A stretch of 64,000 nt of DNA from assembly GCF_013213975.1 (NCBI RefSeq), contig NZ_JABSST010000002.1, positions 3,758-67,757 on the forward strand. The letters are read 5' to 3'. Source of the stretch: Winogradskyella sp. (GTDB taxonomy: Bacteria; Bacteroidota; Bacteroidia; Flavobacteriales; Flavobacteriaceae). How positions within the stretch are numbered: the stretch's first letter is position 1; each line of letters begins with the position of its first letter. Below the pieces are notes generated by a model that worked only from the letters and a program-made list of their open reading frames with translations, did no database searches and had not been told where the DNA came from. The position numbers and the translations under genes are program-made. Of the stretch, positions 1,409 through 9,768 are shown piece after piece.

Positions 1409-1532
1409 CATTGGCTGGTATGGGAAATAAAATCGGAAGTTAGCTTTAAAATTCGGTCACTTATCTGATAAGCAGTTTTTGAATACAACTTCCTAATGTT
1501 CAAAAACCCGAACGCAAAAACAGTTTTCAATG
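1409..1532 (+). ncRNA. ssrS: Probable 6S RNA (6S-Flavo-like)
   Basis: About 124-nt rod-like hairpin: CATTG(1409-13)/CAATG(1528-32), GGG(1422-24)/CCC(1507-09), a central A-rich bubble (1425-34 opposite 1494-1506), GGAAGTT(1435-41)/AACTTCC(1487-93), ATTC(1451-54)/GAAT(1481-84), apical CTTAT/ATAAG. Followed by a + strand terminator with no + strand CDS in between. Boundaries approximate. Confidence 0.65.
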
Positions 1533-1569
1533 TGTTCAGCTCAATCAAGAACGTACTTAATTAGTAGTT

Positions 1570-1600
1570 CCTAACTTAGAGTAAAGTTAGGCTATTTTTT
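1570..1600 (+). terminator. Rho-independent terminator downstream of the putative 6S RNA
   Basis: CCTAACTT-AGAGTA-AAGTTAGG 8-bp stem followed by CTATTTTTT. Confidence 0.65.
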
Positions 1601-1781
1601 AATGCACCAAACATTTTTAGATTTTTTTTAAAAAGGATTTAAATTGTCAATTTAACCTTTTGTTTTTCAAGTATTTATTCACCGAATAATACACACAAAT
1701 TTAATATTTTAAAACTTGGCTTGTCCCATAAATAACCCAGATAAATGCATATATTCGTTAGCATATTTTTAGAGATATTAC

Positions 1782-2345
1782 ATGATGAAAAAGAGTCTAT
1801 TATTATTGATAATTTGTTTGTTTTCAAATTTAGTTGAAGCTCAATTCATTAAAGAACGATCAATAAATGCTCAAGTTGGATATGGGTTGAGTGCGCCTTA
1901 TGACAGTGTTGATGAAATTGCAGATGATGGTTTTTTTGCCCAGGGAGACTTAGTTCTTGAGGTAAAATCTTGGCTCGAACTTAGACCATATGTTGGTTTT
2001 ATTATAACAAGCTCAAATGGTGAAGACTTAAATGGCAATCCCACTAATGAAAAAGCAGAATCAAAAGCCTTTTTACTTGGTGGAAAAGCACGAGTAAGAG
2101 CACCAATTCCTTGGGTAGCACCATATGTAGAATTTGGAATAGGAACTTCAATTGGAAAATTTGAAACCTTAACAGCATTTGACGATATAAAAAAAAGCGG
2201 AATCACATATCACATCCCATTTTCTTTCGGACTTGAACTTGGAAAGAATAATAATGTTGATTTAGGATTTACCTATTATTATCAGCCTTCGGTTAAACAA
2301 TATGTTGGTGCTCTTGCAGTTGGGATTACATTTCCGCTCAATTAA
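1782..2345 (+). CDS. Outer-membrane beta-barrel protein (8-stranded OmpA-like/porin family)
   Basis: Signal peptide, alternating amphipathic beta-strands, C-terminal ...VGITFPLN. Confidence 0.65.
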   Translation: MMKKSLLLLIICLFSNLVEAQFIKERSINAQVGYGLSAPYDSVDEIADDGFFAQGDLVLEVKSWLELRPYVGFIITSSNGEDLNGNPTNEKAESKAFLLGGKARVRAPIPWVAPYVEFGIGTSIGKFETLTAFDDIKKSGITYHIPFSFGLELGKNNNVDLGFTYYYQPSVKQYVGALAVGITFPLN

Positions 2346-3840: not shown

Positions 3841-4863
3841 TTGAAATCTCTTTTTTACATTGTTTTTGTCCTGATGATTGGCCAATCCCATTTCTATGGA
3901 CAAGTTTCTGATTTTAGTCATATCGATTTTAAAAAGGCAGATAGTATTGCATTATCGCTGAGCTCAGAACGATTAACTAATCTTCCTGAGCTTTCGTTAA
4001 AGCTTACCGAGCACCTCGATACAGATGTAGAACGTTTTAGAGCCATTTACAGATGGGTTTGTGATAATATTGCTAATGATTATAGTCTCTACCTAAAAAA
4101 CAGTCGTAAACGTCAACGTTACAAGGATGATAGCTTAAAGTTTAAAGCGTGGAATACAAAGTTTAGACAAATCATTTTTAAAAACCTTTTAAAACGTGAG
4201 CGTACCATTTGTACAGGTTATGCCTATTTGGTGAAAACTTTATCCGACTTAGCTAATATAGACTGCGAAATTGTACAAGGTTACGGACGCGTAAGTACAA
4301 CGAATATTGACAAATTAAACCTTCCTAACCATTCTTGGAATGCCGTAAAACTGAATGATAAATGGTACCTCTGCGACCCAACTTGGGCTAGTGGTATTCC
4401 TAATCCAGAAACCAACCGATTTAAGTTTGCTTATAACAATGGTTTCTTTTTAACCAACCCAAAACTGTTTGCCGTTAACCATTTCCCTGTAGACTCAACA
4501 TGGTGGTTACTCAATGATACGATTCCAACTTTTGATCAGTTTTTAGGTGCACCTGTTATTTATGGCAATGCTTACAAGCATTTAGAGTTTGTAGACCAGC
4601 CAAAACAAATGCATCATGACATTAAAAAGCATCAAAGTCTGAATTTAGTTATGACCGTAAAAGCTAACCTCAACAAAGAAGACCTTCATCTACTTATTGA
4701 TAATGGGATAGAACCTAAAAAGGTAAACTTAAGCAGCATAAATATTGAGGGCAAACAGCTAAAGTTATCTCATACTTTTGATAAGTTTGGGTTTTATGAT
4801 GTTCACCTTTATATAAAGAATGACCTTATTGCTACTTATACCGTAGACGTTGCTCAGAATTAA
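3841..4863 (+). CDS. Transglutaminase-like (Cyk3/KY-type) domain protein, exported
   Basis: Papain-like triad motifs ICTGYAYL (Cys), NHSWNAV (His), LCDPTW (Asp); RAIYRWVCDNI. Confidence 0.8.
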   Translation: MKSLFYIVFVLMIGQSHFYGQVSDFSHIDFKKADSIALSLSSERLTNLPELSLKLTEHLDTDVERFRAIYRWVCDNIANDYSLYLKNSRKRQRYKDDSLKFKAWNTKFRQIIFKNLLKRERTICTGYAYLVKTLSDLANIDCEIVQGYGRVSTTNIDKLNLPNHSWNAVKLNDKWYLCDPTWASGIPNPETNRFKFAYNNGFFLTNPKLFAVNHFPVDSTWWLLNDTIPTFDQFLGAPVIYGNAYKHLEFVDQPKQMHHDIKKHQSLNLVMTVKANLNKEDLHLLIDNGIEPKKVNLSSINIEGKQLKLSHTFDKFGFYDVHLYIKNDLIATYTVDVAQN

Positions 4864-5699
4864 AGCATTTTAAGGGTATTTACCTCTTGCTGCGTCAAAT
4901 GTTTCCAGTGACCACGAGGAATGTCTTTTTTGGTAAGATGTGCAATAGCCACACAATCTATCTTTACCAAATCGTATTTAAGTGTGTCAAAAATAGTACG
5001 AAGGATGGTATTACCTGTATTCTTAATTTTTATACCAATCTTGTTTTTAGACTCACCTTCGATATAACTAATCTCTTCTACAGTGATTAATTTTCCGTCT
5101 ACTTTAAATCCTTCCTGAATCTTTTTAAGATCTTCAAACTTTAAATTCTTATCCAATTCCACCTGGAATAAACGCGCCACCCCAGTTTTAGAATTGGTGA
5201 ACTTTTGGACCACTTTATCATCGTTTGTAAAGAGTAATAGTCCTAAAGAGTTACGCCCCAGACGTCCAATAGGTTTAATATTAGCATTTGTTGCATTGGC
5301 CACTAAATCCATAACCGTTCTTCCCTTACCTTCTGCTGTTGTTGTAGCAAAACCCTTTGGTTTATTTAAGAGTACATAAACTTTTGACTCTGGCGTTATG
5401 CGCTGTCCGTCAAACCTAACCTCATCGGTTGGCTTTACCTTATAGCCCATTTCTGTAATGACCTTACCATTAACCGTCACTAAGCCAATGGCGATATTTT
5501 CATCGGCTTCACGACGCGAACACATCCCAGAATTGGCGATGTATTTGTTTAAACGCATATCGTTAGAATCCGCTGATTTTTTTTGTTGTGTTTTCTTTTT
5601 GACTGGAGCATTACCTCTTGCAAAACTTTTAGATTTGCGATTAGCATTTCCTCTGCCCGAAGCTTTTCCTCTACCCTTGCTATCTTGTTGTCTGCTCAT
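4860..5699 (-). CDS. rluB: RluB/RsuA-family pseudouridine synthase homologue with the catalytic Asp replaced (S4 domain + Psi-synthase fold)
   Basis: S4 domain MRLNKYIANSGMCSRREAD and LLNKPKG; motif II reads GRLGRNSLGLLLFTND instead of GRLD. Confidence 0.8.
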   Translation of the reverse strand: MSRQQDSKGRGKASGRGNANRKSKSFARGNAPVKKKTQQKKSADSNDMRLNKYIANSGMCSRREADENIAIGLVTVNGKVITEMGYKVKPTDEVRFDGQRITPESKVYVLLNKPKGFATTTAEGKGRTVMDLVANATNANIKPIGRLGRNSLGLLLFTNDDKVVQKFTNSKTGVARLFQVELDKNLKFEDLKKIQEGFKVDGKLITVEEISYIEGESKNKIGIKIKNTGNTILRTIFDTLKYDLVKIDCVAIAHLTKKDIPRGHWKHLTQQEVNTLKML

Positions 5700-5712: not shown

Positions 5713-5720
5713 CAAATGTA
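5713..5720 (-). promoter_or_regulatory. -7 promoter box for the rluB-like gene
   Basis: Minus-strand TACATTTG, 13 nt upstream of the ATG. Confidence 0.55.
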
Positions 5721-5739: not shown

Positions 5740-6687
5740 CTACTTAATTTCAACAGTTGTTTGGCGATCTCTGTTCACCGTTAATTTAGTCACATCTGGT
5801 CTTGAGTAGTGACCAACAGGATCAAAATTTTGACGTTCTTCCAAAACACGATTAAAATCTATAGTTTGTATAATTAGCCCTTCTTTGTGAAGTACCGGTG
5901 CTACAATCCACTCACCATCTGGTCCTGCAATACAACTTCCTCCATTGGCCAACGTCTCTGGAGCATTCTTCAATATAGCTTCTAAATATGGTGTGCCCTT
6001 AGGAAAATCCGTTTTGGACATTAAACTCGATACTGATACTACAAAAGAACGTGATTCTTTTGCAATAAATCGTGTAATATCTTTAGTGTTATGATCGCTT
6101 CCTGGCCATACGGCAATGTGTAAGTTTTCACCTTGTCCATATAATGCTGTTCTTGGTAATGGCATCCAGTTTTCCCAGCAGTTAAGACCACCAACCGTAA
6201 AGGCCTTTAACGGATGTACTTGTAAGCCATTTCCATCTCCTGGAGCCCAGGTTAAACGTTCATCGTAAGTTGGTTGTAATTTTCTGTGCACTGATTTTAT
6301 ATCTCCAGATGCATCAATATATACTAAGGATGCATAAATACTATGACCTCCACGATCTAAAGGACGTTCCATAATCCCCAGATAAATGGCCATCTCATTG
6401 TCTTTTGCCAATTGACAAACCGAATCTAACTCCCCTTTCTCAATGCACACAGCATTTCTTACATAATGGGCATGAAGTTCTTTATTCAAGTTAGTATTCC
6501 ATTCTGCACCACCTGTTAAAGCCAACCAGAATGGATATCCTGGCAATAAAGCTTCACCGAAAACAATAAGCTCGCAATGATCTTTTGCTGCTGCTTTAAT
6601 TTGTTCTTCTATTTTTAATAAGGTGGCACTTTTATCTAACCAAACAGGTGCAATTTGCGCCATAGCAATTTTTAAAGTCGTGTTCAT
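5740..6687 (-). CDS. Nitrilase (carbon-nitrogen hydrolase superfamily)
   Basis: Glu-Lys-Cys triad: FGEALLPGYP, HRKLQPTYDER, LNCWENW; C-terminal FDPVGHYSRPD. Confidence 0.9.
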   Translation of the reverse strand: MNTTLKIAMAQIAPVWLDKSATLLKIEEQIKAAAKDHCELIVFGEALLPGYPFWLALTGGAEWNTNLNKELHAHYVRNAVCIEKGELDSVCQLAKDNEMAIYLGIMERPLDRGGHSIYASLVYIDASGDIKSVHRKLQPTYDERLTWAPGDGNGLQVHPLKAFTVGGLNCWENWMPLPRTALYGQGENLHIAVWPGSDHNTKDITRFIAKESRSFVVSVSSLMSKTDFPKGTPYLEAILKNAPETLANGGSCIAGPDGEWIVAPVLHKEGLIIQTIDFNRVLEERQNFDPVGHYSRPDVTKLTVNRDRQTTVEIK

Positions 6688-7590
6688 TTAAATACGGTTT
6701 AATACAATAGAGCTGTCAATTAATAATATTGAAAATACACCTGCTACAATGATAAACTTTAGAATGTTATGTAGAATTAAATAGTGTGTTTTCTTATTTG
6801 ATTTCCACAGGATAAGTAAGAAAAGTATGAGCAACATTACACTCAGGTAAAAGAAATAAAACATGTGCCCAATATTAAAAAATAGTATCAAAGCTACAGC
6901 AGATACTATGGTGAAAATGACTAAAATGGTCAATATGGTTTTTGAGGTTTTCTCTCCATAAACAACAGGCACGGTCTTATAATCTAAAGCTAAGTCTCCC
7001 TTTAAATTTTCAAGATCTTTGGTGAGTTCTCGCATGGATACGAGCAAAAACAAAAATATAGCGTGAGCAAATATGACCAGCTCAAAATTTCGGTAATAAA
7101 TAAATATGGCAAAAAAAGGAATTACGGTCAATATCGCTGAGACTAAGTTTCCAGTCATAGGTTGCTTCTTAAAACGATGCGAATACAACCAAATGGCAAA
7201 AATGTAAATCGCAAAGAATATCACAGTTCTAAACGATACATAACTCGCAAAAACTAGAGCCAAAAAATTAAGGACAAAATAGAAGGACAACTTGGTGTTT
7301 TGACTTACCAAACGATCTAACATGGTCTTTCTTGGTCTGTTTATTAAGTCCTTTTCAGAATCATAAAAATTATTAATGATATAACCTGCTGCAATGGTTG
7401 CTGAAGAAGCTAAAACCAACATCAATAAGTTCACATCAAAAAGCACCTCTTTGATTGGTCTGTCAGGAGCAAAAATGTAAATAGAGGCTAAATATTGCGC
7501 AATAACAACTACCAAAATGTTGTAGCCACGAACAACAGAAAACAGACTGAAAAATTTAAGAAGAATGAGTTTCTGCCGTCTTGAAAGCAT
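6688..7590 (-). CDS. UbiA-superfamily prenyltransferase (DGGGP-synthase-like)
   Basis: Multi-TM protein; motifs GYIINNFYDSEKDLINRP and RELTKDLENLKGD; its stop codon abuts the nitrilase ATG. Confidence 0.85.
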   Translation of the reverse strand: MLSRRQKLILLKFFSLFSVVRGYNILVVVIAQYLASIYIFAPDRPIKEVLFDVNLLMLVLASSATIAAGYIINNFYDSEKDLINRPRKTMLDRLVSQNTKLSFYFVLNFLALVFASYVSFRTVIFFAIYIFAIWLYSHRFKKQPMTGNLVSAILTVIPFFAIFIYYRNFELVIFAHAIFLFLLVSMRELTKDLENLKGDLALDYKTVPVVYGEKTSKTILTILVIFTIVSAVALILFFNIGHMFYFFYLSVMLLILFLLILWKSNKKTHYLILHNILKFIIVAGVFSILLIDSSIVLNRI

Positions 7591-7602
7591 AAAATGAGAG
7601 TT

Positions 7603-7635
7603 AAAAAAACCTCACAAGTTCAACACTTATGAGGT
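7603..7635 (-). terminator. Terminator-like hairpin between mvk and the UbiA gene
   Basis: Minus strand ACCTCATAAGT-GTTGA-ACTTGTGAGGT (11 bp with one G-U) followed by a T run. Confidence 0.6.
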
Positions 7636-7656
7636 CTAGATATTCTAGTCTTAGTT

Positions 7657-8586
7657 TTAAAAGTTATAAACGACTTCTAACTTCTGTCCTTTTAGCGCTT
7701 CCTTAGCCTTTTCAATATTTTCAGTAAAGCCTAAGATATAGCCTCCACCACCAGAACCGCACAGTTTTAAGTAGTAATCGTTAGTTTCGATACCTTTTTT
7801 CCATAACTCGTGGAATTGTGTTGGTATCATAGGTTTAAAATTATTCAGAACCACCTTAGACAATTGCTTTGTGTTTCTGAATAGTGATTTCATGTCCCCT
7901 TTAAGAAAATCATCTACACAAGCATCGGTATGCTTAATAAATTGATCCTTAAGCATACTTCTGAAGCCTTCGTTCTTCATATTCTCCATGAAGATACTCA
8001 CCATTGGTGCCGTTTCACCAACAATACCACTGTCTAATAAAAAGACTGCTCCTTTTCCTTCGGTTTTTTGTGAAGGAATACCAGTGGCTTCAATATTATC
8101 CTTTGAGTTGATTAAGATTGGTAAACTTAAGTAACTATTTAACGGATCCAAACCTGAAGACTTGCCATGAAAAAACGATTCCATCTGAGAGAAAATTGCC
8201 TTTAAGGTCAGTAATTTTTCTCTTGTTAGGTTTTCCAGAACCGTAATTTTATTAGAAGCATACTTATCATAAATGGCTGCAACTAAAGCACCACTACTTC
8301 CCACTCCATATCCTTGAGGAATGGATGAATCGAAGTACATACCAGCAGCAACATCGTTCTGTAACTTTTCATTATCAAACTGCACCATATCCTCATCCAA
8401 TTGCTCTAAATAGTCAGCAAATCGTTTTAAACTCCTATTCGAAGCAATAGCCTCGTCTGAAGGATTTTCATCAACCTTTAGCGCACCATTGTAAAAGTTA
8501 TATGGAATAGATAATCCTTTGGAATCTTTAATAATGCCATACTCTCCAAATAGTAGAATTTTTGAGTAAAAAAGTGGTCCTTTCAT
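7657..8586 (-). CDS. mvk: Mevalonate kinase (GHMP kinase)
   Basis: KILLFGEY, SSIPQGYGVGSSGA, HGKSSGLDP, KLCGSGGGG; adjacent to mvaD. Confidence 0.85.
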   Translation of the reverse strand: MKGPLFYSKILLFGEYGIIKDSKGLSIPYNFYNGALKVDENPSDEAIASNRSLKRFADYLEQLDEDMVQFDNEKLQNDVAAGMYFDSSIPQGYGVGSSGALVAAIYDKYASNKITVLENLTREKLLTLKAIFSQMESFFHGKSSGLDPLNSYLSLPILINSKDNIEATGIPSQKTEGKGAVFLLDSGIVGETAPMVSIFMENMKNEGFRSMLKDQFIKHTDACVDDFLKGDMKSLFRNTKQLSKVVLNNFKPMIPTQFHELWKKGIETNDYYLKLCGSGGGGYILGFTENIEKAKEALKGQKLEVVYNF

Positions 8587-8662
8587 TTATGTTGGGCAAA
8601 TTTCTTTAACAAATATACGTATTAAATTCCTGTATCGTTCACAATCAAGACCTAAGCCTAAG

Positions 8663-9742
8663 TTAATTTTTAACACATTCTGATCCTTTACCAACCTGAT
8701 CTTCAATAAAATGACCATTTTGGCAATACCTTGACAATTGATTTTCAATAAACCTAAGGACGGTATCCTTTTCATTTTCAGGATATAAAAGGTGTACATT
8801 AGCACCTGCATCTAGAGTAAAGCACAGCTTTGAATCGCTTTCTTTGCGATACGACCAAATCTTATTAATAATCTCTAGCGTATTGGGTTTCATTAAAATA
8901 AAATACGGCATACTGGTCATCATCATGGCGTGTAAGGTTAAAGCCTCACTTTCAACAATGTTTATGAATTCATCTAAATCCCCAGACTTTAAGATTGCTG
9001 TTAATTTCTCTAAATTCTCATGCGCTTGATTAAAACGTTGCGCCGCAAAAGGATGTCCGAACATTAATTTATGACCAACCGTACTACTCACTTGTTTCTC
9101 GCCCTTATCTACAAGCAGAATGGTATCTTGATAATTCTTAAAATTAGCATGAACGTCTTCTGCATATCGTACACCAAATAAATCCGAACTGGCTGTACTT
9201 TTATTTTGACCCCAAACCACGAGTTCACCTTCAATACTGCGACATGCACTTCCTGATCCTAGTCTTGCTAAAAAAGACGCTTTTTTATTGAAAAAATCAG
9301 TATTATGCGTAACGCCTAATTGCTTTTCAATACTCATTAAACATAAAGCCAAAGCACTCATACCTGAAGCTGAAGAAGCAATACCAGAACTATGCGGAAA
9401 CGTATTTGACGTATCTATTTTAAAATGAAAATCTCTTAAAAAAGGAACGTAAGCTTCAATACGCTCAAAAAAGGTTTGAATCTTAGGCTTGAAGGCTTCA
9501 TTTTTTTCACCTTCAAAATAAACATCAAAACTAAAATCCGATCCTTCTTTTTTTGTGAAGCTGACTTCCGTTATGGTCTTACAATTAGATAATGTAAAAC
9601 TTATTGAAGGGTTTTCAGGAATTTGATGCGCTCGTTTTCCCCAATACTTGACTAAGGCAATATTACTTGGAGAGGTCCATTTCACAGCACCTTCATTAAG
9701 GTCAGAATCATAAGATTTGAGAATAAAATCTTGTTCGGTCAT
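8663..9742 (-). CDS. mvaD: Diphosphomevalonate decarboxylase
   Basis: PSNIALVKYWGK, GIASSASG, RLGSGSACRS, TLDAGANVH. Start set at ATG 9742 because the upstream TTG lies within a -7 box. Confidence 0.9.
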   Translation of the reverse strand: MTEQDFILKSYDSDLNEGAVKWTSPSNIALVKYWGKRAHQIPENPSISFTLSNCKTITEVSFTKKEGSDFSFDVYFEGEKNEAFKPKIQTFFERIEAYVPFLRDFHFKIDTSNTFPHSSGIASSASGMSALALCLMSIEKQLGVTHNTDFFNKKASFLARLGSGSACRSIEGELVVWGQNKSTASSDLFGVRYAEDVHANFKNYQDTILLVDKGEKQVSSTVGHKLMFGHPFAAQRFNQAHENLEKLTAILKSGDLDEFINIVESEALTLHAMMMTSMPYFILMKPNTLEIINKIWSYRKESDSKLCFTLDAGANVHLLYPENEKDTVLRFIENQLSRYCQNGHFIEDQVGKGSECVKN

Positions 9743-9760
9743 ATACTTTGATTTCTGATG

Positions 9761-9768
9761 CAAAAATA
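9761..9768 (-). promoter_or_regulatory. -7 promoter box for mvaD-mvk
   Basis: Minus-strand TATTTTTG matches TAnnTTTG, 18 nt upstream of ATG 9742. Confidence 0.5.

Follow-up and report, generated by a model that had tools for sequence, protein, structure and literature searches.

Can a pseudouridine synthase outlive its own chemistry? This question is raised by a gene in a 64,000-nucleotide (nt) stretch of DNA from Winogradskyella sp., a marine flavobacterium whose genus is also the one named for near-identical database proteins (contig NZ_JABSST010000002.1 of assembly GCF_013213975.1, positions 3,758 to 67,757 of the forward strand; hereafter the window). Translation of its open reading frame (ORF; 4860-5699, minus strand) gave an uninterrupted protein of 279 residues, with zero frameshifts, which combines an S4 RNA-binding domain with the fold of the RsuA/RluB/RluF pseudouridine synthases and has no catalytic aspartate. 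A preliminary description of the window, made from the sequence alone, had called the protein an apparent RluB-family pseudoenzyme and suggested a non-catalytic RNA chaperone or ribosome-assembly factor maintained by selection. Comparison with orthologues supported the pseudoenzyme status: catalytic residues have been lost, and after their loss the gene has been retained under purifying selection in a single clade that spans 152 genera. Since the catalytic residues are gone and purifying selection is strong, what keeps the protein is probably its binding to rRNA rather than any modification of it, ribosome assembly being the most likely setting.

Residues lost and retained in the catalytic cleft

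Residue equivalences were established by HMMER alignment of the window protein to the solved Escherichia coli RluF, RluB and RsuA. Gly148, within PIGRLGRNS of motif II (PIGRLGRNSLGLLLFTNDD), aligned exactly with D110 of RluB and with the GRLD aspartate of RluF and RsuA. D110 is the catalytic residue of RluB, and this aspartate has been described as universally conserved in pseudouridine synthases (PMC3919597). We then compared conservation between 82 glycine-bearing rows, forming the GRLG clade described below, and 47 Asp-bearing rows. Residue 148 was Gly in 82/82 of the former and Asp in 47/47 of the latter. Phe178, part of an RLF that stands in place of KxY, aligned with RluB Y140 and was Phe in 98% of the clade versus Tyr in 96% of Asp forms; the Y140F mutant of RluB has about 3% of its activity left (PMC3919597). 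The stretch NTGNTILRTIF aligned with motif III of RluB, EGRNREVRRLW, putting Thr231 on R194, a motif-III residue that binds substrate (PMC3919597), and Thr235 on R198, with Arg234 kept; in the clade R231 had become T or S. Finally, residue 249 (RluB R216) was Cys in 99% of the clade versus Arg in 47/47 Asp forms. Five cleft residues were therefore replaced (RluB D110, Y140, R194, R198 and R216 by G, F, T, T and C), and the features that mark an enzymatic member of the family, namely the catalytic GRLD Asp, the [KR]xY Tyr and the motif-III Arg, were all among them.

Other positions had changed as well. Those conserved at ≥85% in Asp forms and altered in the clade were D148G, T151S/A, G161D/E, P170S, Y178F, V233I, R235T/x, R249C and G254H, and seven positions were newly invariant in the GRLG clade only (Gly148, Cys249, Gly229, Lys226, Ala118, Arg100 and an acidic residue at 161). 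The preliminary description had already reported the glycine codon (GGG, two changes from GAY), the RLF and the motif III read as TGNTILRTIF, and each of these stood up to alignment; the changes at Thr231, Thr235 and Cys249 are additional to it. Its account of what the protein keeps, an S4 domain, LLNKPKG, a basic N-terminal tail and a frame free of frameshifts, proved equally sound.

What is retained concerns RNA. Arg62 and Arg146 were 100% conserved in the GRLG clade. Their RluB counterparts are R17, which anchors RNA on the S4 domain, and R108, which intercalates and flips the target base out, and whose replacement by alanine leaves 0.6% activity (PMC3919597). Nearly every conserved position of the S4 domain was kept at 94-100% in the clade, as were LNKPKG, G145-R146-L147, GLLLFTND, R234, F237, Y242, D248, K258 and the C-terminal RG-W--L---E. 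The median net charge of the core was +11 in the GRLG clade versus +10 in Asp forms, and the K/R-rich tail had a clade median of 50 residues and a net charge of about +10. As both of these arginines are kept and the Asp, Tyr and Arg positions replaced, the residues for binding and base flipping have been retained and those for chemistry are gone.

Fold assignments agreed with this division. In Pfam searches the protein scored 48 bits on PF01479 (S4; cut-off 22.8) and 49.9 bits on PF00849 (PseudoU_synth_2; cut-off 26.8), which makes it a structural member of the RsuA/RluB/RluE/RluF family. An AlphaFold2 (AF2) model built from a 42-sequence alignment had a mean predicted local distance difference test (pLDDT) score of 80.6, with about 90 for the core including S4; residues 1-44 fell below 50 and are predicted to be disordered. 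The top Foldseek match of the model was the RluF-RNA complex 3DH3 (template modelling (TM) score 0.86, root-mean-square deviation 1.9 Å). The RluB-RNA complex 4LGT followed with a TM score of 0.82, and 9CL9, E. coli RluB on a 12 °C pre-50S intermediate, was matched as well.

Could the protein still be an enzyme, making pseudouridine through an unrecognised nucleophile or carrying out a new reaction on uridine, for example via Cys249? The base-flipping Arg146 and the architecture of the cleft are retained, and Cys is fixed at 99% where Arg had been invariant in the catalytic domain. Other enzymes that modify RNA use a cysteine to attack uridine at C6. However, the aspartate is described as both universal and catalytic (PMC3919597), and four more cleft residues have gone with it, so that we regard continued catalysis as very improbable. 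A compensating acid elsewhere was also considered and rejected. Residue 161 is the only clade-wide acidic gain in the row comparison, and in the AF2 model it caps the N-terminal end of helix 161-168. Because strand 152-158 separates it from residue 148, putting it by inference some 13 residues along from the site, it was judged too distant to serve as the nucleophile.

Distribution, descent and selection in the Flavobacteriaceae

GRLG was found in 121/121 of the closest homologues (82-99% identity), and all 61 Winogradskyella genomes sampled carried an intact copy with no stops. To survey the family, an even sample of 401 Flavobacteriaceae genomes was scanned with a degenerate DNA pattern for G-R-L-G-R-[NGS]-x-x-G-L-x-x-x-T-N-D. 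The pattern matched once each in 199 of the 401 genomes, which take in 152 of 302 genera. With the pattern reversed, as a control, there were zero matches. Among the genera with the Gly form were Winogradskyella, Algibacter, Hyunsoonleella, Altibacter, Leeuwenhoekiella, Luteirhabdus, Gilvibacter and Pukyongia. The Asp is kept in Tenacibaculum, Polaribacter, Zeaxanthinibacter, Flagellimonas, Capnocytophaga, Chryseobacterium and other Bacteroidota, and in Flavobacterium orthologues it is kept as GRMD.

The 82 GRLG rows came out as one clade in a tree of 138 rows (Shimodaira-Hasegawa-like approximate likelihood ratio test (SH-aLRT) support 99), nested within Asp-bearing Flavobacteriaceae orthologues, and a careful 59-row tree recovered the same clade with support of 100/99. 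Its stem branch was long, 0.26-0.38 across the two trees (0.38 in the 138-row tree). Across the family, Gly and Asp forms have their neighbours in common, in the order diphosphomevalonate decarboxylase, mevalonate kinase, UbiA prenyltransferase, (CN hydrolase), rluB-like gene. This common context shows that the Gly genes are positional orthologues and not paralogues. By these trees the chemistry was lost a single time, in a common ancestor of about half the Flavobacteriaceae genera.

The isoprenoid cluster itself occupies 5740-9763 (minus strand) of the window, and a functional link to an RNA-binding protein is not evident. A Flavobacterium-type version of the cluster (diphosphomevalonate decarboxylase, mevalonate kinase, UbiA, rluB-like gene), with GRMDK, was also present on contigs filed under metagenome-assembled genomes (MAGs) of Pseudanabaena sp. 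UWO311 and Bifidobacterium breve; these are probably mis-binned flavobacterial contigs.

Selection on the gene was estimated from pairwise nonsynonymous to synonymous rate ratios (dN/dS; Nei-Gojobori) among 30 Winogradskyella genomes, the values being approximate as dS was about 1.5 and near saturation. The median dN/dS was 0.05 for the whole gene; by region it was 0.22 for the tail, 0.043 for S4 and 0.036 for the dead domain. Despite the high dS these values are far below 1, and selection on the gene is strongly purifying. At 113 tabulated Gly-bearing loci, codon 148 was GGA in 39, GGT in 47, GGG in 18 and GGC in 9. The use of all four Gly codons shows that synonymous change has gone on for long at this codon while the residue stayed the same.

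The upstream region was conserved too. A predicted -7 promoter box, TACATTTG in the window, sits in the 40-nt gap that follows the CN-hydrolase gene. Of 125 orthologous GRLG loci, 112 had a TAnnTTTG box ≤70 nt upstream, where 4.6% would be expected by chance; the box lay mostly 21-27 nt before the ATG and was followed by an A-rich stretch. A box at this distance from the start implies a very short leader with no Shine-Dalgarno sequence, as is usual in Bacteroidetes.

These data rule out a sequencing error or a pseudogene, and we give next to no credence to a decaying remnant or to a sequencing or assembly fault. Some streamlined relatives lack the gene, and its scores on curated synthase models fall below threshold, as incipient decay would have it, but intact copies throughout the genus, a motif shared by 152 genera, the low dN/dS, the synonymous turnover at the Gly codon and the conserved promoter box all speak against it. 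Nor is a recent decay tenable: GRLD in close relatives, which the preliminary description had singled out as the sign of recent decay or error, was not encountered, the nearest Asp-bearing orthologues being only about 50-57% identical and in other genera. Its remaining expectations here, maintenance by selection, GRLG across a clade and a -7 promoter of the gene's own (predicted), agree with what was found.

The Asp has apparently been lost more than once. Six genera make up a second group, in which GK[LM] precedes a G, H, S or N in place of the Asp; the Tyr has become Phe in 4/6 of its genera and R234 is lost in 4/6, with Arg249 kept. Counting of independent losses was based on the gene tree. 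This group was sister to Asp-bearing genes (96/92 and 100/96), so its loss of the Asp looks independent of that in the GRLG clade. A single origin of all non-Asp forms appeared in 0/200 bootstrap trees of the 59-row set, and was rejected by the approximately unbiased (AU) test on the same tree (p = 0.017), the group having been named after a first tree had been seen. The AU test on the 138-row quick tree was uninformative, because a better tree came out of the constrained search than out of the quick free one. The second group also bears on catalysis by the window protein: tolerance of four different residues at the site, together with a kept Arg249, argues for relaxed constraint and not for a new catalytic design.

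Several further variants of the active site were observed. In a streamlined 1.7-Mb flavobacterium the orthologue lies at 1495-2214 (plus strand) of its locus, directly after UbiA with overlapping starts. It has no basic tail and a fully degenerate motif II (RPIQTTVKQFSGLVLISNDN), with QTTV for GRLD; its S4 domain and C-terminal motifs are retained. An Aquimarina MAG orthologue reads PVDRLGRNS, in which the catalytic position is Gly and an Asp stands three residues before it, and Maribacter orthologues at four loci read PVDK[LM][DE]K in motif II. Two lineages have GRLE or GRME, with Glu at the Asp position, and in genes of the Gramella type GKLD goes together with a degenerate motif III.

The features of the gene are located in Table 1. 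Beside it, a transglutaminase-like gene (3841-4863, plus strand) converges on the pseudoenzyme gene, the two sharing four bases, TTAA, at 4860-4863. As the convergent frames overlap by these 4 bases, there is no space for a terminator between them.

Table 1. Position in the window of the pseudoenzyme gene, its predicted promoter box and its domains and residues.
Feature	Coordinates	Strand	Basis or remark
Whole gene, 279-residue protein of S4 + RsuA/RluB/RluF fold without catalytic Asp	4860..5699	-	stop codon included
Bacteroidetes-type -7 promoter box TACATTTG (predicted)	5713..5720	-	21 nt upstream of ATG
K/R/G-rich N-terminal tail, residues 1-45, predicted disordered	5565..5699	-	AF2 pLDDT, composition
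S4 RNA-binding domain, residues 48-94, including Arg62 (= RluB Arg17)	5418..5558	-	Pfam PF01479
Pseudouridine-synthase-like domain, residues 108-279, cleft disarmed	4863..5378	-	PF00849
Arg146 (CGT), retained equivalent of RluB Arg108 wedge	5262..5264	-	HMMER alignment
Gly148 (GGG) at universal catalytic Asp position (RluB D110)	5256..5258	-	HMMER alignment; plus strand ccc
Phe178 (TTC) replacing conserved active-site Tyr (RluB Y140)	5166..5168	-	HMMER alignment
Degenerate motif III GNTILRTIF, residues 229-237	4989..5015	-	HMMER alignment, clade comparison
Cys249 (TGT) replacing family-invariant Arg (RluB R216)	4953..4955	-	fold position from alignment only

Identity of the lineage and its ancestral target

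To which subfamily did the ancestor belong? The protein stayed below the cut-off of every curated model: 81.6 bits on the subfamily model TIGR00093 (cut-off 109.3), 124 on the RluF model NF007784 (318), 81 on the RsuA model (275) and 70.8 on the RluB model NF007976 (290). Asp-bearing orthologues were scored on the models as well. On TIGR00093, Tenacibaculum scored 141 and a Bacteroidales MAG 146, and Flavobacterium johnsoniae, at 99.6, was likewise below the cut-off; on NF007976, Asp-bearing Bacteroidota orthologues reached just 130-140 bits, and their scores against E. coli RluF and RluB were about equal, with RsuA lower. The label RluB-family in the preliminary description therefore holds for the RsuA/RluB/RluF fold and is only putative as regards RluB itself: because RluF models score higher and no equivalog cut-off is reached, 'RluB' reflects a habit of annotation and not a demonstrated identity.

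A tree including E. coli sequences taken from PDB alignments narrowed the choice. The flavobacterial RluF joined E. coli RluF (99), and this tree excluded RluF as the identity of the window lineage. By elimination, RluB is the more likely ancestor, and U2605 its putative ancestral target.

The remainder of the genome was then considered. The assembly is 97% complete and contains five PF00849 genes. Besides the window gene these comprise two of RluA/RluD type, an RluE-like gene (GRLDEKSEG) and a true RluF (GRLDKPSEG; 328 bits, above the cut-off of 318). Among the five there was no second, Asp-bearing copy of the rluB-like lineage; such a GRLD RluB, for which the preliminary description had advised a search, is absent. 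We could thus reject the idea that the protein is a paralogue with an active twin, as it also has the same synteny as the Asp forms. Loss of the target uridines was rejected in turn, the genome's own 23S rRNA having retained GAGACAGUUCGGUC, the stem with U2604 and U2605.

Public annotations do not reflect these changes. Homologous genes are annotated as 'pseudouridine synthase' or '23S rRNA pseudouridine2605 synthase', a warning that catalytic names are routinely given to Asp-less genes.

A probable rRNA-binding role without modification

The account that we favour, with moderate confidence, is that of a selected non-catalytic pseudoenzyme which binds rRNA at the ancestral stem-loop and aids or monitors folding of the large subunit. 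The basic tail and the S4 domain, through Arg62, would dock on this stem-loop, for which domain V of 23S rRNA, close to the peptidyl-transferase centre, is the likeliest place. The cleft, with its Arg146 wedge and net positive surface, would grip the helix and may still flip a base. With Asp148, Tyr178, Arg231, Arg235 and Arg249 replaced, isomerisation would be unable to follow. Since no isomerisation would be possible, we propose that the protein acts stoichiometrically: it would hold or shield a folding intermediate of the large subunit, as a chaperone or a checkpoint, and then depart.

Findings in other bacteria give this account some footing. E. coli RluB sits on pre-50S particles (PDB 9CL9) and accumulates on stalled ones (PMC11912913), and Bacillus subtilis rluB mutants are cold-sensitive, with poor growth at low temperature (PMC12485807). 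In the case of RlmB and RlmL (the L domain of RlmKL), catalytically dead forms are still able to promote 50S assembly (PMC11194073).

A number of points weigh on the other side. RluB re-expression gave no rescue of the assembly defect of E. coli Δ10 (PMC11194073), so that a chaperone role of RluB is unestablished even in E. coli. Three of the lost residues are arginines that line the cleft, and the flipped nucleotide may be bound less tightly or in another way. The rluB-like Bacteroidota lineage formed a clade of its own (92), unplaced relative to E. coli RluB and RsuA; placement between these two was not resolved because both lie on long branches. Evidence of expression is limited to the conserved -7 box, itself predicted from sequence. 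The gene was undetected in several Flavobacteriaceae genomes of 1.1-2.7 Mb (some of them incomplete) that carry an intact GRLD RluF, and its absence from some streamlined members indicates that it is dispensable in some backgrounds. Lastly, we infer the rRNA binding, the helix bound and the role in assembly, and association with the ribosome is likewise predicted.

The same residues can be read differently. The protein may have been re-purposed, its S4 domain and remodelled cleft serving another job, whether as a factor for mature or stalled 50S subunits, in the way that other S4 proteins work in ribosome rescue, or in binding another RNA. The seven positions newly invariant in the GRLG clade are what such a change would leave, and the long stem branch looks like remodelling followed by new constraint and not like mere decay. 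S4-domain proteins act in ribosome quality control, according to the title of one report (10.1101/2024.03.03.583159). Against this, neither the residues for the ancestral RNA (Arg62, Arg146, Arg176) nor any part of the S4 surface has changed, the gene context is the same and no new domain has been gained. We therefore rate re-purposing as unlikely.

A bolder version, which we advance only tentatively and would not expect to hold, is that the ancestral selected function was non-catalytic throughout the Flavobacteriaceae. Active-site decay would then be recurrent for this reason, and in the GRLG clade the cleft would have been rebuilt as a new recognition site (Gly148, Cys249, Gly229, Lys226 and acidic 161). 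If this were true, the protein would be a dedicated stoichiometric ribosome factor, for example a late 50S checkpoint or a ribosome-bound regulator, without counterpart in model bacteria.

How does the rRNA-binding pseudoenzyme that we favour compare with known proteins? E. coli RluB, the synthase of pseudouridine (Ψ) 2605 (4LAB, 4LGT, 9CL9), likewise has S4, the RsuA-type fold and a basic disordered extension, and its Arg17 and Arg108 are conserved as Arg62 and Arg146; however, identity is about 25%, and the basic tail is N-terminal in the window protein and C-terminal in RluB. E. coli RluF, the Ψ2604 synthase (3DH3), is the top sequence match (E = 2e-30, 33% identity), but the host genome has a separate true GRLD RluF and the window lineage forms another clade. 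Pseudouridine-synthase pseudoenzymes are already known in eukaryotic organelles. Human RPUSD3, a mitochondrial RluA-family member without the Asp, is regarded as one, and is part of a module required for mitochondrial 16S rRNA and translation (PMC12710931). RPUSD3 is a eukaryotic protein of the RluA family with an origin among paralogues, whereas the window gene is bacterial, of the RsuA/RluB family, and the only member of its orthologous group that the genome carries. The activity proposed here has its nearest parallel in E. coli Δ10, where RlmB E198A and RlmL N309A promote 50S assembly without modification (PMC11194073); those are engineered methyltransferase mutants, whereas the window form is natural and kept in about half of the family. 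No earlier description of an Asp-less pseudouridine synthase from flavobacteria or other bacteria was found in the literature searched, the coverage of which was incomplete.

Whether bacterial rRNA modification enzymes are important because of the modified residue or because they are present while the ribosome is assembled is a matter of long debate, a question so far approached through engineered active-site mutants in E. coli. The GRLG clade offers a natural separation-of-function allele, with closely related Asp and Gly species for comparison, and Flavobacterium johnsoniae, which has retained the Asp, is a genetically tractable relative. Taken together, these results suggest that catalysis became dispensable in the Flavobacteriaceae, and that the protein itself usually did not.

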